Assembly: GCA_963932905.1 (NCBI GenBank)
Contig: CAWVRN010000049.1
Coordinates: forward strand, 1-14,265
Source: an uncultured Bdellovibrio sp.
GTDB taxonomy: Bacteria; Bdellovibrionota; Bdellovibrionia; Bdellovibrionales; Bdellovibrionaceae
Length of the DNA stretch: 14,265 bases
Direction of reading: 5' to 3'
How positions within the stretch are numbered: position 1 is the stretch's first letter; each line of letters starts with the position of its first letter. The notes under the pieces are model-generated. The model worked only from the letters and a program-made list of their open reading frames with translations. It searched no databases and had not been told where the DNA came from. Positions 1 through 13,259 of this stretch are shown in pieces. The translations under genes and the position numbers were made by a program.

Positions 1-8
1 CGGAATTT

Positions 9-47
9 AAAAAAGCAAAAGTGCCCTCCAGACGCAGGCTGAGGGGC
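9..47 (-). terminator. Probable intrinsic terminator downstream of fxsA
   Basis: Imperfect GC-rich hairpin GCCCTCCAG-N7-CTGAGGGGC (23-47). On the minus strand it is followed by ACTTTTGCTTTTTT, and it starts 6 nt after the fxsA stop. Confidence 0.5.
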
Positions 48-53
48 CAGTTC

Positions 54-575
54 TTAGGATTTAGAATCGGGATCATTAAGCAGCTTGGTGTCCTCAACCT
101 TGCGAAACTGAGCATCAATAACGTTGTCAGAATACTCGTTTTCTTGCTGCCTTTGCGCGGTTTGAAATGGATTTCCACCTTGCGAATAGTAAAACTTAAA
201 ACCATTATTTCCAAACTGGTGAACAAAGCTGTTTGCGCTGAAAACGCGCTTCATCAAGAAATTGGAAAACGCAATCGCCATCAACCAACGGACTGGTGGA
301 ATGATCAATACTACCCCAGCTATTTTTGTGGCCATCGATGGAACTATCAACAACAATCCTGATAAGAATAGCAGTCCACGAGAAATTAATGCGCTATTAG
401 AAGCCGAGGCATGCCCTGTTTGAAACTCCCTTAAAGATTTTGATCCTACGGCACGTACGATTAAAACTCCAAACATGGTGCTAACAACATAAAACAAAAT
501 AAAATTCAGAAATCCGTAAGCCACAACAAAATTGTACACAAGTAAAACTTCGGCAATCAAAATAAGTATCGGCAT
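54..575 (-). CDS. fxsA: FxsA family inner-membrane protein
   Basis: 173 aa. N-terminal 'ILIAEV' and hydrophobic helices, 'GLLLIVP...GVVLIIPPVR' core, and a C-terminal 'VIDAQFRKVED' tail typical of FxsA. AGGA RBS lies just after the xth stop. Confidence 0.8.
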   Translation of the reverse strand: MPILILIAEVLLVYNFVVAYGFLNFILFYVVSTMFGVLIVRAVGSKSLREFQTGHASASNSALISRGLLFLSGLLLIVPSMATKIAGVVLIIPPVRWLMAIAFSNFLMKRVFSANSFVHQFGNNGFKFYYSQGGNPFQTAQRQQENEYSDNVIDAQFRKVEDTKLLNDPDSKS

Positions 576-1429: not shown

Positions 1430-2593
1430 ATGTCGACAGATTTGAGCCAAAAGTATAAATCCATACTGAAGAACCAATTTAAAAGTTTAGATGAATCCAC
1501 TTTGGCACCAATGGTGTCAGACAACTTGCTGTGCCCGAATCCTGTAGAATTGCCTAAAGCGCTTATTACCGAGTTTCAAAATACAATTAAAGCATTTTAC
1601 ACGCTTCGCAATGATCCTATGTATATTCACAATTATGAGTCTGAACTGAATCGCCTTCAACTAAAGGATCCCGGAAACAAATCTTTGTTCATGAGCTATG
1701 ATTTCCATTTGTCCTGGGAAGGAAAACCAAAATTAATAGAGATCAATACTAATGCTGCCTTTTTAACTTTGGGCTATTATTTATATCAAGCGCATGGATT
1801 AGATACTGGTCTTGACTTCAAAAATGAAGATTTGAAAGACTTATTTTTGCAAGAATTGAAATTACAAAACAAACAACCTTCTAAACCGCATGTTCTAATC
1901 GTCGATGAAAAGCCGCATGAACAGAAAATGTTTTTAGAATTCTTAATTGTTCAAGAATTGCTGCAATCGTTTGGCTGGCAATGCTCAATTGCCGATGTCG
2001 CCGACTACGCGAAATACAAGGTCGATATCGTGTACAACCGTTACACTGATTTCTATCTAAGCAGCACAGAAGCACAAGCTATGCGACGTGATTTTTTAAA
2101 TCGCACCACATGCTTTTCACCTAACCCATTTGAATACTTTATGTTGGCAGATAAACAGCGCATGATTGATTGGTCATCAGATAGCTTCTGGGAAAGTTTA
2201 AATTTTCCAACAGATCAAGTCGAGCGTATTAGAAATGTATTGCCTAAAACTCTTAGCTTTAAGCCAGAATTAAAAGAAGAGATCTGGTCACAGCGTAAAC
2301 ATCTATTTTTCAAACCAAAAAATTCGTTTGGCTCGAAACAGTCTTACAAAGGCGCATCGGTTTCCAAAAAAGTATTCGAAGAAGTCGCTAATGAACAATT
2401 TTTGGCGCAAGAGTTAATCCCTGCCCCTGAAGTAGCTATGAAAACACCCGATGGCGATCAGAATTTTAAATTCGATTTACGTTGTTATGCTTATCAAGAT
2501 CAGTTGCAATTAGTTATTGCACGGGTTTATCAAGGACAAGTCACTAACCTAAAAACAAAATGGGGCGGTTTTTCGCCGGTAAAATGGGTGTAG
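1430..2593 (+). CDS. Circularly permuted ATP-grasp (glutathione/glutathionylspermidine-synthetase-like) amide ligase, substrate unknown
   Basis: 387 aa. 'YDFHL...PKLIEINTN' (ExN metal motif) lies in the N-terminal third, indicating permuted order. It is followed by 'VYNR', 'FFKPKNSFGSK' (Lys plus Gly loop), 'AQELIP', 'DLRCY', 'ARVY' and 'TNL...GG'. Confidence 0.7.
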   Translation: MSTDLSQKYKSILKNQFKSLDESTLAPMVSDNLLCPNPVELPKALITEFQNTIKAFYTLRNDPMYIHNYESELNRLQLKDPGNKSLFMSYDFHLSWEGKPKLIEINTNAAFLTLGYYLYQAHGLDTGLDFKNEDLKDLFLQELKLQNKQPSKPHVLIVDEKPHEQKMFLEFLIVQELLQSFGWQCSIADVADYAKYKVDIVYNRYTDFYLSSTEAQAMRRDFLNRTTCFSPNPFEYFMLADKQRMIDWSSDSFWESLNFPTDQVERIRNVLPKTLSFKPELKEEIWSQRKHLFFKPKNSFGSKQSYKGASVSKKVFEEVANEQFLAQELIPAPEVAMKTPDGDQNFKFDLRCYAYQDQLQLVIARVYQGQVTNLKTKWGGFSPVKWV

Positions 2594-5071: not shown

Positions 5072-6145
5072 TTACTTTTTGTTTTCGAATTCTTTGATTA
5101 GGTCAGAAAGTTCTTTAACTTTTTTGCTTTTATATTCTGCAGCACCGCCACCTTTGTAGTGAGCTTGAGCCATGGTATTGATCGTATTAGCTAGGCGTAA
5201 TCCTGCTTTCATGATTTGGGCTTTGATGATTTCAGAAGCCTGTTTCATATATTCTGGTGTCGCTTCCGCTGCACCCGTTGCTTTAACAGTTACAGCAACC
5301 CCTTTTTCGTCCAACACTGGTTTACCGTTAGCATCTTTAGTTAAACGCATGCAGTATTCACGCTGAGATGGGTGCAAATCGGTAGCACCGTCAATATAAA
5401 CCTTAGAATGTAATGCTTGAGATTCTTTGTACCATTCAACCGAAGGAGCCGATGCGATTTCTTTAGTTTTCAAACTTTTCTGATCTTCAATTATAAGATC
5501 AGCTAATTCTTTGTAGCCTTTCCATCCCGGCATTTTATATTTAGGATCTTTTTCTTTCTGAGCGTAGAAAATTTCTTCAACTAGAGCTGAATCCCAGAAA
5601 GAATGCAAGTTAGATGACTTGATTTGAGCTTTTTCGCCTTTGCCAACAGAGTATTTAACATTACACCAGTTAGCACCACGGTCATAGCCATTACCCACAT
5701 GCAATGGCTGATGAACGTCACCAACTAAATGAATAAGATATCGCATTAAATCCATACGTTGGTTTTTTGAAAATTTTGGCGTTGATTTTCCCATGAACAA
5801 TTTCGTCGGAACTCCAGCGATCAAAGAATTGGCGTCGATTTTCTCTCGTAAAGCTACAGGAATTTTGCCGTACGAACCGTCATAACGAGGATCGATTTCA
5901 ACAAAGTGAAAACTTGCAAATTCCTTATAATCTTCATCGGAACGCACTAAATCTGGAAATGTAGCAGCTTCGGCCATTGGTCCATGACCTAAGATCTCTT
6001 CAACCAAACGCTTACCTTTGGGGGTCAAGTTACGTTGAGCGATCTCGCCCACAGTTTGATGACCTAAATCGCCCCAAGCTAAAGCCATTGAGCTAACTAA
6101 CGTCGTTGCCATAACAGACGTAACGATCTTTTTTAAATTATTCAT
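5072..6145 (-). CDS. Secreted S1/P1 family zinc nuclease
   Basis: Sec signal peptide ending ALA, directly followed by mature W1-GDLGH. Motifs FPD, FHF, HLVGDVHQPLH and NLHSFWD. Start moved to ATG 6145, which has a GGAG RBS at 6151-6154. Confidence 0.92.
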   Translation of the reverse strand: MNNLKKIVTSVMATTLVSSMALAWGDLGHQTVGEIAQRNLTPKGKRLVEEILGHGPMAEAATFPDLVRSDEDYKEFASFHFVEIDPRYDGSYGKIPVALREKIDANSLIAGVPTKLFMGKSTPKFSKNQRMDLMRYLIHLVGDVHQPLHVGNGYDRGANWCNVKYSVGKGEKAQIKSSNLHSFWDSALVEEIFYAQKEKDPKYKMPGWKGYKELADLIIEDQKSLKTKEIASAPSVEWYKESQALHSKVYIDGATDLHPSQREYCMRLTKDANGKPVLDEKGVAVTVKATGAAEATPEYMKQASEIIKAQIMKAGLRLANTINTMAQAHYKGGGAAEYKSKKVKELSDLIKEFENKK

Positions 6146-6165
6146 AAATTCTCCAATCACAGCGC

Positions 6166-6358: not shown

Positions 6359-8191
6359 ATGACCGTAAAAATGAGTTTAAAAAAGCCACAAACCAGCGAG
6401 TACTCCGCATTTGATGCCATCGATGGTTCTCATCCTTACAAAACACTCGGCGAAGAATTCTACATCGAGTACCCAGTGTTCAATTTGAAAAAAGGCAAAA
6501 TAGCTTACTTCAATTATGATCTAGCGCGCGATATGGGTCTGATATCAAAAGATCATAAACAAAAGATGACCCCAAAGTTAGAACAAAAAATTTTGGACAC
6601 ATTTTCAATTCAAATTATTAACGAATATGATGTTCTTTCAAAAAAGCGAATTCCTAGTCACTTGATCAAGCCAAACAAATATATGGCTACTCGCTATCTA
6701 CAACTGCAGCACAAAAACAAACAGGGCAAAACTTCGGGCGATGGGCGCAGTATTTGGAATGGATTTATAAAAAACGGAAAAAAAACTTGGGATGTATCTT
6801 CACGTGGCACCGGCGTCACACGCCTGTCGCCGGGCAGTGTTGAGGCGGACAAACCTCTTAAAACGGGAAACACTGAGGCCGGTTATGGATGTGGACAAGC
6901 GGAAATTGACGAGCTAGTTAGCTGCGCCATTATGTCTGAAGTGGTTCACAAAATGGGAATTTATACGGAACGAGTTCTAACAGTTATTGATTTAGGTAAC
7001 GGTGTGGGAATTGGTGTACGTGCAGCCGAAAATTTATTTAGACCTGCCCATGCATTTCTATTTCTAAAACAAAACCGCTGGGAGCCTTTAAAGCGGGTCA
7101 TCGACTTTTTTATCGACCAAAAAGAAATGTCTCAGACAACATCACACGGCGCGGATAAGTACGATACTTTCTTAACTAAATTTTGCGATCGATTTGCTTC
7201 GTTTGCGGCCCAACTCGAAGAACACTACCTATTTGTATGGCTAGACTGGGACGGCGATAACGTATTGATGGATGCTGGTATCATCGACTATGGCAGCGTA
7301 CGTCACTTCGGAAGCTGTCATAACCAATATCGCTACGATGATGTCGAACGTTTTTCAACCAACTTGTTAGAACAAAAACAAAAAGCTAAATCGATCGTCA
7401 TGACGATGCTTCAAGCTATTGACTACGTGAAAACGAAAAACAAAAAAAGTTTAGACAGTTTCAAGCGTCATCCTTTGATGGGTCGTTTTGAAAAAATTTT
7501 TAATCAAAAACAACTTTACTATTTTTCTCAAAAACTAGGGTTTAACGATGTGACATTTGCGAAGGCCACATCACAGCCGGAAACTCACCGTGCGTTGTTA
7601 AAGCTATTCAAAGCCTGCCATTATTGGGAAAATTTAAAAACTCAACCCGGCTTTTCAAAAGTAGCGGACGGCATTAACAAAAACCCTCTATGTAACATGC
7701 GCAACTTCTATCGCGAATACCCGGCATATAAAGAAGATGGCAAGGCACCGAAACTGACCATCGATGAGTTTATCTCTATGACCTGGACGCAATCCTCCCC
7801 GAAGAAAAGTACAGCCTTGTACTACAAAAACAGCGCGCGTTTTGAAGACCTTTTAAAATGCTATGATCGTGTCACTACCTTCATGTCGAAAAATAGCAAT
7901 GCGAACATTCTTTCGGTTCTGGCAAAAAATGCGGCTCGCTGGAATCCTTCCAACTTTTTGACAGGGAATTCTTTGATCCACAATGTGGATAGTATTTTAG
8001 AACAATATAAGACTTTTCAACGGGAAGATATTGTCCAACTAAATGTTGAAAAGATCGTTCATTATGTGAGCGGCGAAGCGTCGGATTTAAGAAAGAAATC
8101 AATTTATGATGTGAATTCTGCCGACAAAGTTAACCAAAAACTTTGGGACCAAATCCTAATGAACTTGCATGAATTTAGAGATGAGTTTTAA
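6359..8191 (+). CDS. Divergent SelO/YdiU-family kinase-fold protein (putative AMPylase or variant)
   Basis: 610 aa. 'YFNYDLARDMGL', 'MATRY', 'SGDGR', 'RGTGVT' (SelO KGxGxT), 'SEVVHKMGIYTERVL' (SelO SEAMHxLGIPTTRAL), R221/R228, 'DN' and 'IDYG' appear in SelO order. Alternative start at ATG 6371. Confidence 0.75.
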   Translation: MTVKMSLKKPQTSEYSAFDAIDGSHPYKTLGEEFYIEYPVFNLKKGKIAYFNYDLARDMGLISKDHKQKMTPKLEQKILDTFSIQIINEYDVLSKKRIPSHLIKPNKYMATRYLQLQHKNKQGKTSGDGRSIWNGFIKNGKKTWDVSSRGTGVTRLSPGSVEADKPLKTGNTEAGYGCGQAEIDELVSCAIMSEVVHKMGIYTERVLTVIDLGNGVGIGVRAAENLFRPAHAFLFLKQNRWEPLKRVIDFFIDQKEMSQTTSHGADKYDTFLTKFCDRFASFAAQLEEHYLFVWLDWDGDNVLMDAGIIDYGSVRHFGSCHNQYRYDDVERFSTNLLEQKQKAKSIVMTMLQAIDYVKTKNKKSLDSFKRHPLMGRFEKIFNQKQLYYFSQKLGFNDVTFAKATSQPETHRALLKLFKACHYWENLKTQPGFSKVADGINKNPLCNMRNFYREYPAYKEDGKAPKLTIDEFISMTWTQSSPKKSTALYYKNSARFEDLLKCYDRVTTFMSKNSNANILSVLAKNAARWNPSNFLTGNSLIHNVDSILEQYKTFQREDIVQLNVEKIVHYVSGEASDLRKKSIYDVNSADKVNQKLWDQILMNLHEFRDEF

Positions 8192-8810
8192 CCCAACGTT
8201 TGATAATTGGGAATTCTTCGTCGATCATATCGTGTTTTTTATTCAAAGACACAAATTCAATATCTAGTCCGCTATCTTTTAATTTTTCAGCACCAAATTT
8301 TGTTTCTTGATAGGGAAGAATGTCATCGCGGTACCCGTGGGTCATAATCCAAGGAGTTTTCCTAGAATCCTGAGTTAGGCTTTGACGCCAACGAGGGAAA
8401 AAGTGGAAATAACCACTAACTCCTATAACACCACCTAATTGCTTTGGATAGTTAAGCGCTACATCGGCACTGACCAGGCAGCCTTGTGAAAAACCAAAAA
8501 GGAAAATATTTTTAGCTTTGTAACCTTGCTTTTCTAAATCGTTGATGACATCAAAAATCATCGAGCGAACACGCAGAACACCCGTTTTTTCATACGGAGG
8601 TTCACCGAACCAAGAAAAACCTTTTAAATATTTTCTAGGAGCATTTAAAAGTAAGTAATTCATTTCAGGGACACCCAACTCTTTATCGAAATTCTTAAAT
8701 GGTTTAAGACTATCCCCACGACCATGAAGCACCAGCATAATCTTTTTTGATTTACGTTTAGCCGCCAAAAACTGATACTTAAAATGGTCTGTAGATAACT
8801 GAAAATCCAT
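8175..8810 (-). CDS. Alpha/beta hydrolase, phospholipase/carboxylesterase (Abhydrolase_2 type)
   Basis: LHGRG oxyanion motif, GFSQG nucleophile, HGYRDDIL (Asp) and a C-terminal His. Start moved to ATG 8810, which has a GAGGGG RBS right at the S41 stop. Confidence 0.88.
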   Translation of the reverse strand: MDFQLSTDHFKYQFLAAKRKSKKIMLVLHGRGDSLKPFKNFDKELGVPEMNYLLLNAPRKYLKGFSWFGEPPYEKTGVLRVRSMIFDVINDLEKQGYKAKNIFLFGFSQGCLVSADVALNYPKQLGGVIGVSGYFHFFPRWRQSLTQDSRKTPWIMTHGYRDDILPYQETKFGAEKLKDSGLDIEFVSLNKKHDMIDEEFPIIKRWVKTHL

Positions 8811-8821
8811 CCGGGTCCCCT

Positions 8822-10339
8822 CTAGAATTGGATACAATCGATGTGACCAAGGGCTTTACCCAGCAAGCGATCTGCCGTCAAGATTTCCTTCTTCAAAGAG
8901 CCACATTGCTGAACAGACGCAATTCGCTTTGAAACTTTTTCTCTGACATCACGATTTCCTACAGGGTACAAATATAACTCTTCTTCACGCTGGAAAATAC
9001 TTGCGATAGTTTCAGTCACTTGAACATCCGGAGTAATTCCTAGCAATTGAGGTGATCGCCCTGATGGCAAGTGAAATGTCCCTTTCGTTTGAAAGTACAG
9101 CAGCTTATTATTTTTTGGCCACTCTTCACCTTCTTGAAACGAACCCTTTCCAAATGTACGCTCACCGATCAGGAGCCCTCGTTCGTAGTGCTGAATAACA
9201 CCCGCTAGGATTTCTGCACTCGACGCTGTGGAACGATTCACTAGAACTACCAAGGGACCAAAATATTCTTCAGGTTGTTCACTAAAAAACGTTTCTTTTC
9301 TAAAACGCTTGTTAAAGTACACTAGATCGTAAATCTTTTTCTCGCCTACGAATAACCCACTGATGCAAAGGATTTCATCCATTGAACCACCCGAATTATC
9401 ACGTAAATCCAAGATCACACCGTTGGTTTTTTCTGTGATCGCTTGGCGGAGGTTAGATTTAGTTACTTCACACACGCCATCGGAAATTTTAAAAATACTG
9501 ATCAAGTGCAAATTCTTATTATTTCTGCGGGGGAGCCGTTTCATTGAAACGGCAGGTAACACCTGGCTACGTTTATCTAAAGACCATGTAGCAATTTTAT
9601 TGTTCACCATTTTTACTTTAAATTTATGAGTATCCTTGCTTTTCAACCAGTCAGATACTGATTCCAAAGCCATATGAGAAATATCTTTTCCATCAATCTC
9701 AAGAATCACATCGCCTTTGCTAACGCCTAATTTATCAAAAATGGATCCTGGATAGATACGTGCGAACACAAATTCAGATTCAGTTTTACCTAAATTAAAA
9801 CCATATGAGTTTATTCTTGGATTACTATTAGCTACAACTTTTTCATAGTATTCCCGTGGCAACAAATAGCTATGTGGATCACGATGAATCGATAGATAAT
9901 TGTTAATACCAAGACCAACAATATAAGGAGCAAACTTATGAGATTTAATTTTCTCTTCAAGCTCTTTCCAAATGACTTCGAAATTCATTCCTAGGTGCTT
10001 GCTGTCTCTAAACAATTTCAACCATGGCGTTAATCTAACTTTTTCACTTTGACTCGCAATCGTTTTACGCTTTTCTAGAGATAGCCCGTCAGAATCAGAC
10101 CATTTCATTTCTAATTCCATGTAGTTCGCCATGCTATAAAGGCTATTCACACAGGCCAAGTATGTCTTTTGGGTGCTTTTACAATTGAAATTTTGATAGA
10201 AATTGCCAATATCTTGGGTCTTCAAACCCGTGTCTATCCACGACTCCTCTTGCTTAGAGGTCGATGAATTCATGAGCTGGTGCTCGAATGAAATAAATAT
10301 TAGTACTATGGCTATTAACCCTACCCCAAAACGTACCAC
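8822..10339 (-). CDS. S41A C-terminal processing protease (CtpA/Prc-like) with PDZ domain and N-terminal membrane anchor or signal
   Basis: DPHS, a PDZ domain (YGFNL...GDVILEIDG), LDLRDNSGG, TASSAE (Ser), GERTFGKG (Lys) and GITPDV. Start moved to the in-frame GTG 10339, which is preceded by GGGGAGG. The track start at 10384 lies inside the sigma-54 promoter. Confidence 0.92.
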   Translation of the reverse strand: MVRFGVGLIAIVLIFISFEHQLMNSSTSKQEESWIDTGLKTQDIGNFYQNFNCKSTQKTYLACVNSLYSMANYMELEMKWSDSDGLSLEKRKTIASQSEKVRLTPWLKLFRDSKHLGMNFEVIWKELEEKIKSHKFAPYIVGLGINNYLSIHRDPHSYLLPREYYEKVVANSNPRINSYGFNLGKTESEFVFARIYPGSIFDKLGVSKGDVILEIDGKDISHMALESVSDWLKSKDTHKFKVKMVNNKIATWSLDKRSQVLPAVSMKRLPRRNNKNLHLISIFKISDGVCEVTKSNLRQAITEKTNGVILDLRDNSGGSMDEILCISGLFVGEKKIYDLVYFNKRFRKETFFSEQPEEYFGPLVVLVNRSTASSAEILAGVIQHYERGLLIGERTFGKGSFQEGEEWPKNNKLLYFQTKGTFHLPSGRSPQLLGITPDVQVTETIASIFQREEELYLYPVGNRDVREKVSKRIASVQQCGSLKKEILTADRLLGKALGHIDCIQF

Positions 10340-10509: not shown

Positions 10510-11496
10510 ATGGACCGTAAAATTATAGTTACAGGCGCCAATGGCTTTATTGGCAGCGTGATCGTGTGGGAGCTTAACCAGAAGGGTTTTACGAACATTA
10601 TCGCCGTCGACAGCGTTCCTTTAAGCGAGCGTAATCTTTTAAAAAATTTAAAATACTCTCAGTTCCTAATGCACACGGAGCTTTGGCCATATCTAGCCAA
10701 GCAAGCCAAGGGTGAAATTTCGTGGATTGTTCATATGGGTGCATGCTCATCTACAACAGAAAAGAACTGGGACTTCCTATACGAAAATAATACCCTATAC
10801 ACTCAAAAAATCTTCGAAGCCGCCGTAGAGAAGGATTTCGACGTCGTATATGCCTCCAGCGCCGCGACTTATGGTGCCGGCGAAAACGGATTTGATGACA
10901 CGACTGATGCTAATATTTTAAAACCTTTAAACCTATATGGTGATTCTAAAGTACTTTTTGACCGTTGGACTAAAACCGCCAAGGCATTGCCAAAACATTG
11001 GTACGGTTTAAAGTTCTTCAATGTATATGGCCCAATGGAATACCACAAAGATTCAATGGCCAGCGTGGTGTTTAAGTCATTTCACGCGATTAAATCCACT
11101 GGAAAAATGAAATTATTTAAGTCACACAATCCTGAATACAAAGATGGCGAACAGTTACGTGATTTCGTTTATGTTAAAGATGTCACACGCTGGATTGTTG
11201 AATTGATGGAAAAAAAGCCGACTAACGGTATTTATAACATGGGATTTGGCAAAGCACGCACATGGAATGACTTAGTTACTGCGACATTCAAGTCTTTGAA
11301 CAAAGACGTGCAAATCGAATGGATGGAAATTCCTGCCGATATCAGAAATCAATATCAGTACTTCACAGAAGCCAACATGAATCGCTGGCTAGCCCAGAAG
11401 ATGTCGGCTCCTCAATGGAGCCTAGAAGACGGAATCAAAGATTACGTTCAGAATTATTTAAATACTTCCGATCCATACTTAAAAACGAAAGTGTAA
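10510..11496 (+). CDS. hldD: ADP-L-glycero-D-manno-heptose 6-epimerase
   Basis: IIVTGANGFIGS, HMGACSSTTE, YASSAATYG, PLNLYGDSK (YxxxK), FNVYGP.EYHK..MAS, RDFVYV and YQYFTEA. GAGG RBS. Synonyms rfaD/gmhD. Confidence 0.95.
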   Translation: MDRKIIVTGANGFIGSVIVWELNQKGFTNIIAVDSVPLSERNLLKNLKYSQFLMHTELWPYLAKQAKGEISWIVHMGACSSTTEKNWDFLYENNTLYTQKIFEAAVEKDFDVVYASSAATYGAGENGFDDTTDANILKPLNLYGDSKVLFDRWTKTAKALPKHWYGLKFFNVYGPMEYHKDSMASVVFKSFHAIKSTGKMKLFKSHNPEYKDGEQLRDFVYVKDVTRWIVELMEKKPTNGIYNMGFGKARTWNDLVTATFKSLNKDVQIEWMEIPADIRNQYQYFTEANMNRWLAQKMSAPQWSLEDGIKDYVQNYLNTSDPYLKTKV

Positions 11497-11507
11497 AAGG
11501 AACGTAC

Positions 11508-13259
11508 TTGCAGGCACTACCAGATCACTTAAAAAAATATATCGTCGATCAAAGCGATCAAAAGTATACGCCAAAGGAACAGGCGATTTGGCGCTATATT
11601 TTGCGACAATTGAAAAACTATTTAAAAGATCACGCGCATGAAAGTTATCTGGACGGTTTAGAAAAAACCGGAATTTCGTCAGAAGAAATTCCTTTGATAA
11701 AAGACATCAGCAGGCATTTAGAAAAATTTGGCTGGCGAGCCCTACCCGTTAGCGGATTCATTCCACCGGCGGCTTTTATGGAACTACAGTCTTTAAGTGT
11801 TCTACCCATTGCTTCTGAAATGCGTTCGCTAGAACATTTGAAATACACGCCGGCACCGGACATTGTTCACGAAGCCGCTGGGCACGCTCCGTTCTTAGCC
11901 CATCCAGAATTTGCTGAGTATTTAAAAAAATACGCTACCGTGGCTAAGAAAGCGATTATCAGCAAGGAAGACTTAGATATCTACGAAGCTATCCGCGTAC
12001 TTTCGGATTTAAAAGAAAACCCGTCATCAACAGCAGAGCAAATTACAATGGCAGAGAAACACCTTAACGCTGTCGTTGAGCAAAATAAAACAGTTTCAGA
12101 AGCCGCCGAACTTGGCCGCATGAACTGGTGGACCGCGGAATACGGTTTAATCGGTAGTGTCGATAATCCTAAAATCTATGGAGCGGGATTATTGTCCAGC
12201 GTGGGTGAATCGAAAGATTGCCTGAAAGACAACGTTAAAAAAATTCCTCTGACTGTCGAATGTTTGAAATATTCTTATGATATTACCGAACAACAACCAC
12301 AGCTATTTGTAACACCGACGTTCAAGCACTTAGAAAAAGTCTTATTTGAAATGGCTGACACCATGGCTTACAAAACGGGCGGCATTTCTGGCTTGGAAAA
12401 AGCAAAACAATCAAGAACGGTGAATACCGTAGTTCTAAATTCGACGGTACAAGTAAGCGGTATTTTATCTAACTTCGAATCAAGTGGTGATCGCGTTGAT
12501 TTCATCCAGTTCTCTAGCCCAACACAAATTTCTATCGATGATAGCCAATTACCCGATCACGGGAAAGAATATCATTCGACAGGATTTAGTTCACCGGTTG
12601 GCAAGTTAAAAAATATCTCAACCTGTCCTTCAGAATTATCAGATGAAGCTTGGGAAAAACTGGGTCTGCAAATCGGTCAGAAACTGACTCTAAATTATGA
12701 AAGCGGATTTATCGTTGAGGGTTTCTATTTCGGTCGTACTGTTCGCGGTGGGAAGACTATCTTGATGAAATTCAAAGATGCGACAGTAACTAAAGGCTCT
12801 AAAAAATATTATCAGCCAGAATGGGGACCTTTTGATTTACTGTTAGGCTCAGCGGTAACTAGTGTTTACAGCGGCCCTGCCGATCGCATTTCATACGGTC
12901 AGAACGATGATTTTGTGGTAAAGAAAGTCGCTGTTAAACTAGTTTCGGAAATCGATAGTGAAATTCACCAACTGTATTCGGATATACGCCACCTTCGTAC
13001 AAAATTTAATTTCGAATCACCGGCCCTTCCCACTTTGAAAAACATTTTTGCAAAGATGCAAATTTTGGATTCAAAAGATTGGTTAGCTGTTTTAGAAATA
13101 TATGAAATTTTAGTGAGTCACAAAAAAGAAATATCTAAAGAAGCCGGTTATGATGACTTTGTAAATATCGTACACCAAGATTTAGAATCCAAGAAAAAAT
13201 CAGCAAAGGACAATGCTGACTCAATTGAACAGGGCGTTCAGTTAGCTGCCCAAATATGA
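11508..13259 (+). CDS. phhA: Phenylalanine 4-hydroxylase, long form with C-terminal extension (aromatic amino acid hydroxylase)
   Basis: Fe ligands in PDIVHEAAGH and WWTAEYGL, plus IYGAGLLSS. Start moved from 11319, which overlaps hldD by 178 nt, to the in-frame TTG 11508 with an AAGGA RBS just after the hldD stop. This gives 583 aa. Confidence 0.9.
   Translation: MQALPDHLKKYIVDQSDQKYTPKEQAIWRYILRQLKNYLKDHAHESYLDGLEKTGISSEEIPLIKDISRHLEKFGWRALPVSGFIPPAAFMELQSLSVLPIASEMRSLEHLKYTPAPDIVHEAAGHAPFLAHPEFAEYLKKYATVAKKAIISKEDLDIYEAIRVLSDLKENPSSTAEQITMAEKHLNAVVEQNKTVSEAAELGRMNWWTAEYGLIGSVDNPKIYGAGLLSSVGESKDCLKDNVKKIPLTVECLKYSYDITEQQPQLFVTPTFKHLEKVLFEMADTMAYKTGGISGLEKAKQSRTVNTVVLNSTVQVSGILSNFESSGDRVDFIQFSSPTQISIDDSQLPDHGKEYHSTGFSSPVGKLKNISTCPSELSDEAWEKLGLQIGQKLTLNYESGFIVEGFYFGRTVRGGKTILMKFKDATVTKGSKKYYQPEWGPFDLLLGSAVTSVYSGPADRISYGQNDDFVVKKVAVKLVSEIDSEIHQLYSDIRHLRTKFNFESPALPTLKNIFAKMQILDSKDWLAVLEIYEILVSHKKEISKEAGYDDFVNIVHQDLESKKKSAKDNADSIEQGVQLAAQI

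Follow-up and report, generated by a model that had tools for sequence, protein, structure and literature searches.

Kinase-fold "pseudokinases" have repeatedly been found to catalyse unexpected reactions, among them AMPylation and UMPylation by SelO/YdiU, in which AMP or UMP passes from the alpha-phosphate to Ser, Thr, Tyr or His of a protein, and, as recently reported, cleavage of NAD+. The Val of the SelO motif HGV is described as occupying the position of the kinase catalytic Asp, Asp166 in PKA (Dudkiewicz et al., 2012; PMC3281104). A stretch of 14,265 nucleotides from an uncultured Bdellovibrio sp. (contig CAWVRN010000049.1 of assembly GCA_963932905.1; the whole stretch is referred to as the window) encodes a SelO-like protein of 610 aa with an Asp, D296, at this position. 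Does this protein work as a kinase, as a SelO, or in another way? An original prediction, made from the sequence of the window, proposed a distinct SelO subfamily and saw D296 as its key novelty and a possible kinase-type catalytic base. Here, we confirm the motif, show that it is conserved, and assign it to a SelO subfamily that is distinct and uncharacterised; a correlated rewiring of the nucleotide site is the more informative finding. The protein probably catalyses a reaction that is related to, but different from, that of SelO; the term "distinct subfamily" is supported, and the term "kinase-like" is not.

The SelO-like protein has a complete SelO fold in the predicted model

The gene for this divergent SelO/YdiU-fold protein (P0001) lies at 6359..8191 (+), and its assignment draws on translation of the open reading frame (ORF), Pfam SelO, an AlphaFold2 (AF2) model and VIA-align. 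A search with hidden Markov models placed the protein narrowly within Pfam SelO (PF02696; 24.2 bits vs a cut-off of 22.8, E 1.8e-05, residues 27-535), and many of its orthologues have no precomputed PF02696 match. Because its scores with NCBIfam YdiU NF000658 (38.8 bits vs a cut-off of 431) and with the NCBIfam SelO equivalog NF040880 (12.4 bits vs 900) fall far under the cut-offs, the window protein is not a SelO equivalog. None of the kinase families of Pfam matched it at E<=1.

The AF2 model, built from a 56-sequence alignment, had a predicted local distance difference test score of 92.1 and a predicted template modelling (TM) score of 0.92. When the model was searched with Foldseek, all nine matches at E<=0.001 were YdiU or SelO (E 6.6e-15 to 6.1e-13, target TM 0.67-0.75), and ordinary kinases first appeared at an E of about 0.02. 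VIA-align superposed residues 14..607 of the model on chain 1..475 of Pseudomonas syringae SelO (6eac_C) with a Z of 32.6 and a root-mean-square deviation (rmsd) of 3.3 Å over 460/475 residues. Across the SelO/YdiU structures, Z ranged from 28.4 to 32.6 and rmsd from 3.3 to 3.8 Å, with 436-460 residues aligned; the next fold class reached Z 13.4 and kinases reached Z 8-9. The YdiU-NAD complexes 9l29, 9jym and 9jyn were among the best structural matches. In this predicted model, the SelO fold is complete and carries additional insertions; the window protein is not a kinase domain.

The likeness to SelO/YdiU (PF02696; P. syringae SelO 6EAC; E. coli YdiU 6III and 6LNA) thus extends over the whole protein, and it includes the GDGR motif, the alphaC Glu, a pair of Arg residues, the D-N of the catalytic loop and a D-Y-G ten residues on. 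In contrast, sequence identity is only 13-17%, and the window protein, with 610 aa vs about 480 aa, has extra N-terminal and C-terminal segments. It also lacks the C-terminal Cys/selenocysteine (Sec)-x-x tail, which is described as common, though not universal, in the SelO family (PMC3281104; PMC13391479): the last residues are ...RDEF in the window protein and E-x-I or similar in its relatives. Its N-terminus is non-hydrophobic, suggesting that it is probably cytoplasmic.

D296 aligns with the Val of the SelO loop, and an acid at this position is favoured but dispensable

The region 7238..7294 corresponds exactly to codons 294-312 in frame, and translation of the ORF confirmed the predicted reading W294-L-D296-W-D-G-D300-N301...D310-Y-G, with D310 within IIDYG. 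Three independent alignments were compared. Two used E. coli YdiU chains as the target, one by phmmer and one with the 56-sequence family profile (E 8e-08); the third was a profile-profile comparison by hhalign with 31 canonical SelO proteins from the phylum (probability 99.4, E 1.1e-21). Each of them placed the loop W294-L-D296-W-D298-G-D300-N301 (7238..7261, +) without gaps on H240-G-V242-M-N244-T-D246-N247 of YdiU (W294 on H, L295 on G, D296 on V, W297 on M, D298 on N, G299 on T, D300 on D and N301 on N), reproducing the proposed match of D296 with the Val of HGVMNTDN. They likewise placed D310 of D310-Y-G (7286..7294, +) on the DYG Asp, the DFG-equivalent metal-binding residue (YdiU Asp256), and the spacing from D300-N301 to D310 is the same as in YdiU. 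That canonical SelO has Val at the position of D296 also held, as the 31 canonical proteins all read HGV[LM]N[TS]DN (31/31), whereas the window family reads WxDWDGDN. Asn247 and Asp256 of YdiU are described as a metal clamp and Asp246 as the proposed general base (bioRxiv 10.1101/692707). This equivalence predicts that D300 serves as general base and N301 as metal ligand; D296 and D298 are acidic residues specific to the family.

Conservation of the loop was determined in an alignment of 56 diverse full-length representatives, down to 24% identity, to which all counts out of 56 refer. W294, G299, D300, N301 and D310 were each present in 56/56 and D298 in 55/56, in agreement with the claim that the D-N...D set of the AMPylases is kept, with the same spacing, alongside acids at 296 and 298. 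Position 296 was more variable (D 42, E 9, A 3, S 1, N 1). The expectation that D296 would be conserved among homologues therefore stood in part: D was found in 28/28 near homologues (down to 44% identity), and 51/56 members have an acid, as do all 19 genome-derived orthologues, which span several families of the phylum (D 16, E 3), but five of the 56 are non-acidic. In a wider set of 269 proteins, 223 matched the loop pattern, with D 198, E 12, A 8, S 4 and N 1 at position 296; the remaining 46 were mostly fragments, together with four full-length proteins with altered spacing or an altered DYG motif.

We then mapped position 296 on a quick IQ-TREE phylogeny from which the catalytic-loop columns had been left out, and in which 17/53 inner branches were starred. 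The identity of the residue changed at least 14 times, and at least four independent changes led from an acid to a non-acid in otherwise intact proteins. One protein with A296 (P0121) is the sister (99, starred) of a Bdellovibrio protein with D296, and representatives with S or A at 296 form a group in which the rest of the loop is intact. Position 296 is selected for an acid yet dispensable. Since the acid was lost at least four times in intact proteins, D296 probably does not serve as an essential catalytic base, and D298 (55/56) is a stricter novelty of the family than D296.

The nucleotide site is remodelled around a conserved core

Besides the loop, the phosphate-binding Arg residues of SelO are retained. 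With hhalign, the segment A110-T-R-Y-L-Q115-L-Q-H118...G127-D-G-R130 (6686..6748, +) corresponded to the GHQFG and GDGR motifs of SelO, Q115 being YdiU Gln75 and R130 being YdiU Arg87; R112, D128 and R130 are each found in 56/56 members and Q115 in 54/56. E194 (6938..6940, +; E in 52/56) was aligned by phmmer and hhalign with the alphaC Glu (YdiU Glu130, P. syringae Glu136). All three alignments matched R221...R228-P-A-H231 (7019..7051, +) with the Arg pair of SelO (E. coli Arg170/Arg177; P. syringae Arg176/Arg183); R221 is present in 54/56 (the other two have K), and R228 and H231 in 56/56 each. The roles of the P. syringae residues, that is, the alphaC Glu and the Arg pair, are as given in a review (PMC8097203). 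In YdiU, Arg87, Arg170 and Arg177 are reported to bind the buried beta and gamma phosphates of a nucleotide that lies in a flipped orientation (bioRxiv 10.1101/692707).

Around this core, several positions differ from those of SelO. The strand and turn W144-D-V-S-S-R149-G-T-G-V-T154 (6788..6820, +; strand 142-149 in the model) places R149 by hhalign at the beta3 (VAIK) Lys, which is Lys107 in YdiU and Lys113 in P. syringae SelO. This Lys coordinates the gamma-phosphate in SelO and is called "almost invariant" in the family (PMC3281104), and K107A is listed among the active-centre mutants of YdiU, most of which lost activity (bioRxiv 10.1101/692707). In the window family, it is not conserved: the 56 members have R 26, C 22, S 2, T 2, K 2, V 1 and A 1, and the 19 genome-derived orthologues have R in 6 and C, S, G or V in 13. 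The base-fixing loop is remodelled as well (6833..6895, +), as indicated by the hhalign gap and by column counts. A 17-residue insert, S160-Y176, with a conserved core (T-G-[DN]; G170 in 54/56, Y176 in 56/56), is followed by G177-C178-G179, in which C178 takes the place of the base-fixing Asp of YdiU (Asp119-Gly120); at this position, C is found in 45/56 and D in 2/56, and G179 in 56/56. Finally, the catalytic loop has D298 in place of YdiU Asn244, which is described as contacting the AMP phosphate (bioRxiv 10.1101/692707), and D or E at 296 in place of Val242.

The two most divergent members, the metagenomic proteins P0210 (642 aa) and P0215 (649 aa), keep the beta3 Lys and the base-fixing Asp, have no insert, and carry A or N at 296. 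With these features, both seem to stand midway between canonical SelO and the divergent subfamily. Given this combination of features in P0210 and P0215, the loss of the Lys, the insert, and the changes from Asp119 to Cys178, from Asn244 to D298 and from Val242 to D/E296 look like one correlated package, a reading that comes from a single clade. The original prediction contained neither this package nor the stricter conservation of D298.

The SelO-like gene is a second paralogue beside canonical SelO

The genome from which the window was taken (4.55 Mb, 58 contigs) encodes, on another contig (C10:45201-46643; 1483..2949 of locus L001), a canonical SelO of 488 aa with a PF02696 score of 384 bits and the motif HGVLNTDN...DYG. 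The gene in the window is therefore a second, divergent paralogue beside a canonical SelO. Together with the package of active-site changes, this separate paralogue bears out the proposal of a distinct SelO subfamily.

Among 201 sampled genomes of the phylum Bdellovibrionota, the divergent gene was found in 73, in one copy each, and canonical SelO in 92; both forms were present in 52, the divergent form alone in 21, the canonical form alone in 40, and neither in 88. The divergent subfamily is thus conserved and single-copy across much of Bdellovibrionota, and in many of these predatory bacteria it stands beside a canonical SelO. A search of 1.84 billion cluster representatives returned 318 at E<=0.001, of which 120 were at <=1e-30. 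The best 80 of more than 540 genomic relatives carried the labels Bdellovibrio, Pseudobdellovibrionaceae, Bdellovibrionales, Bdellovibrionia, Bdellovibrionota or Oligoflexia, with one exception. The orthologue in B. bacteriovorus HD100 is CAE78322.1, and B. bacteriovorus orthologues are named "protein adenylyltransferase SelO family protein" or "hypothetical protein" by NCBI. Our literature search found no paper that names SelO or YdiU together with Bdellovibrio.

Some labels point elsewhere. The exception (locus L028, JBLMWG010000270.1) is a 49%-identical orthologue on a contig of a metagenome-assembled genome labelled "Bacillota bacterium", which is probably mis-binned. One distant member, on a 3.9-kb contig, is labelled Algicola sp., and an Atlas neighbour cluster is mostly Pseudomonadota (score 0.93).

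The retained and altered residues point to a probable SelO-type chemistry with altered specificity

On balance, we consider it probable that the window protein catalyses nucleotidyl transfer of the SelO type but differs from SelO in its donor, metal or acceptor. Because the Arg pocket, the metal ligands and D300 are retained, the nucleotide should still be bound in the manner of SelO, with chemistry at the alpha-phosphate; because the base-fixing loop is rebuilt, the Lys is missing and two carboxylates are added, the donor, the metal stoichiometry or the acceptor should differ from those of canonical SelO. We infer the following scheme. An active cytoplasmic enzyme of the SelO/YdiU fold would bind a nucleotide in the SelO-type flipped orientation, its distal phosphates buried in the conserved Arg pocket formed by R130, R221 and R228, with Q115. 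N301 and D310 would hold two divalent metals, and the reaction would occur at the alpha-phosphate, resulting in nucleotidyl (nucleoside monophosphate, NMP) transfer and not in gamma-phosphate transfer. The family-specific package may alter binding both at the base/ribose end and at the alpha-phosphate/acceptor site, possible changes being the use of another nucleotide as donor, the binding of an additional metal, or an acceptor that is cationic or a hydroxyl. D296 would then act as an auxiliary acidic residue, in the second shell of a metal or in contact with the acceptor, rather than as the catalytic base. An altered specificity fits the co-existence of both genes in 52 genomes.

Several observations weigh against this proposal. 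The beta3 Lys, a gamma-phosphate ligand in SelO, is retained in only 2/56 members. With the base-fixing Asp lost and the loop remodelled, YdiU-like binding of ATP or UTP cannot be assumed. Moreover, a carboxylate at D298, the site of the Asn that contacts the AMP phosphate, would repel the phosphate unless it were bridged by a metal. Position 296, being acidic in 51/56 members and in all 19 genome-derived orthologues, must matter for something.

The last point is also an argument for a true phosphotransferase, the boldest form of the original prediction, in which a regained kinase Asp (D296 in D-x4-N, followed by D310-Y-G) would transfer the gamma-phosphate of a canonically oriented ATP, either alone or beside NMP transfer. 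Kinases with an H-x-D-x4-N loop, such as PKA with its HRD motif, share with the window family a D-x4-N followed by a D-x-G metal site, and they share the alphaC Glu. HGD-type catalytic loops are also known among protein and small-molecule kinases. D296 takes the Asp166 position by transitive alignment, through the Val of HGV, which is matched to PKA Asp166 in the published comparison (PMC3281104). Compared with the residue set of eukaryotic-like protein kinases (beta3 Lys and alphaC Glu, HRD Asp, Asn, and DFG Asp), the family has the alphaC Glu, the Asp, the Asn and the DFG-type Asp, but its Lys is absent or variable (R 26, C 22 and K 2 of 56). It also has W-L in place of H-R/G, and it keeps the SelO-specific pocket in which a flipped nucleotide has its distal phosphates buried (R130 56/56, R221 54/56, R228 56/56) as well as the SelO-type base D300 (56/56). 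The acid at 296 itself was lost independently at least four times in intact proteins, including the S/A clade, and the structural likeness to real kinases stays at the generic level of the kinase fold (Z 8-9, vs 32.6 for SelO). Taken together, the toggling between D and E, the acid losses, the variable Lys and the intact Arg pocket do not support D296 as the key novelty and a kinase-type catalytic base, and we regard phosphotransfer as improbable.

A different possibility is that the pyrophosphate-bond chemistry of SelO is kept but that no protein is modified: the enzyme would hydrolyse, or transfer from, a dinucleotide or another nucleotide conjugate, or adenylate a small molecule or carboxylate. 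The role of the additional Asp residues would then be to activate water or to bind a third metal. The presence of YdiU-NAD complexes among the best structural matches is consistent with this, as is a reported Mn-dependent NADase activity of SelO that converts NAD+ to NMN and AMP (PMC13391479). Furthermore, the insert replaces the base-fixing loop together with the residues for peptide recognition in YdiU (the Arg116/Met117 region), and the MchC proteins of microcin maturation are described as distant SelO relatives with non-signalling roles (PMC3281104). However, the NADase is reported to need a conserved C-terminal Cys/Sec-Ser-Ser tail (PMC13391479), where the window protein has ...RDEF, and no small-molecule pathway genes co-vary with the gene; a neighbouring ligase is present in 28/73 carrier genomes. 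The parallel with MchC/MceJ (Dudkiewicz et al., 2012; PMC3281104), compared here by description, likewise reaches only so far: these proteins, too, have diverged as bacterial paralogues of SelO and vary in the HGV motif, but the published variants, QGN and HGS, contain no Asp. No mch/mce-type cluster, with its acyltransferase partner, exporter and microcin gene, was found within the window. We rate chemistry of this kind as unlikely, though more likely than phosphotransfer. Even less probable, and by a wide measure, is a catalytically dead pseudoenzyme that serves as a scaffold or nucleotide sensor. The absence of the Lys needed in canonical SelO and an NCBIfam YdiU score of 38.8 bits, where the cut-off is 431, would agree with such a role, but family members down to 24% identity share invariant metal ligands, a general base and Arg residues for phosphate binding, a pattern typical of active enzymes.

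Beyond SelO-type nucleotidyl transfer with an altered specificity, the rewired site might, as a tentative and rather doubtful possibility, carry out chemistry new to the SelO fold, with a function specific to predatory Bdellovibrionota that is exerted alongside canonical SelO. The sites involved would be the lost beta3 Lys, the loop insert, the change of the base-fixing Asp to Cys, and the three-Asp loop D296-x-D298-x-D300-N. A donor other than ATP or UTP, a three-metal mechanism, modification of a basic acceptor and genuine phosphoryl transfer are each possible forms of it. In any case, the subfamily represents a natural experiment in which the metal, base and phosphate-pocket residues were kept while a supposedly indispensable Lys was lost and two loop acids were gained, one of them at the classical position of the kinase base. 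Its characterisation would show which SelO residues the flipped-nucleotide mechanism truly requires, and it might reveal a new donor or acceptor.

Genomic neighbourhood of the SelO-like gene

In the window, the SelO-like gene is solitary: on one side, an S1/P1 nuclease gene (5072..6160, -) is transcribed divergently from it, and on the other, an esterase gene (Abhydrolase_2; 8175..8837, -) converges on it. Between 6000 and 8400, we observed eight promoter-like sites, vs 5.6 +/- 2.6 expected, but the intergenic region upstream contained none of them; a single, weak terminator-like site lay within the SelO-like gene.

Further upstream, at 1430..2593 (+), lies a gene for an ATP-grasp-like ligase of 387 aa, with a weak match to Pfam TTL (E 0.00096, below the cut-off). 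Neighbourhoods were counted in 80 related loci. In 52/80, the ligase gene lay upstream and on the strand of the SelO-like gene; where the upstream flank reached at least 3 kb (65 loci), this was so in 46. The gap between the two genes was <260 bp in 24 of the 52 loci. A 2-Cys peroxiredoxin gene was upstream of the SelO-like gene in 32/80, and no peroxiredoxin ORF was seen within this window. Across the order, synteny covers the whole region, including the FxsA, exonuclease III-type, esterase, S41 peptidase and epimerase genes.

The ligase was present in 39/201 sampled genomes, in 28 of them with the SelO-like gene and in 11 without it, and 45 of the 73 genomes carrying the SelO-like gene had no ligase. 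It is nearly restricted to the order of the window, where it was found in 35/36 sampled genomes of families f1-f6. Because the ligase and the SelO-like gene are distributed differently among the genomes, we infer no functional partnership between the two. An obligate partnership was rejected on these grounds and because three unrelated genes (CorA, a PhoD-like phosphatase and the S1/P1 nuclease) separate the ligase from the SelO-like gene in this window. A looser redox link among the ligase, the peroxiredoxin and the SelO-like gene may exist.

Further gene boundaries overlap downstream. The esterase ORF shares 17 bases (8175..8191) with the 3' end of the SelO-like gene, and its listed TTL start also lies inside the S41 peptidase ORF, so that the real start may be internal. 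In a 646-aa ORF at 11319..13259 (+), a biopterin-dependent aromatic amino-acid hydroxylase domain is confined to the N-terminal part and is followed by a long C-terminal extension to which no domain was assigned. As listed, this ORF overlaps the epimerase ORF (10510..11496) by 178 bases, and its true start is therefore probably further downstream.

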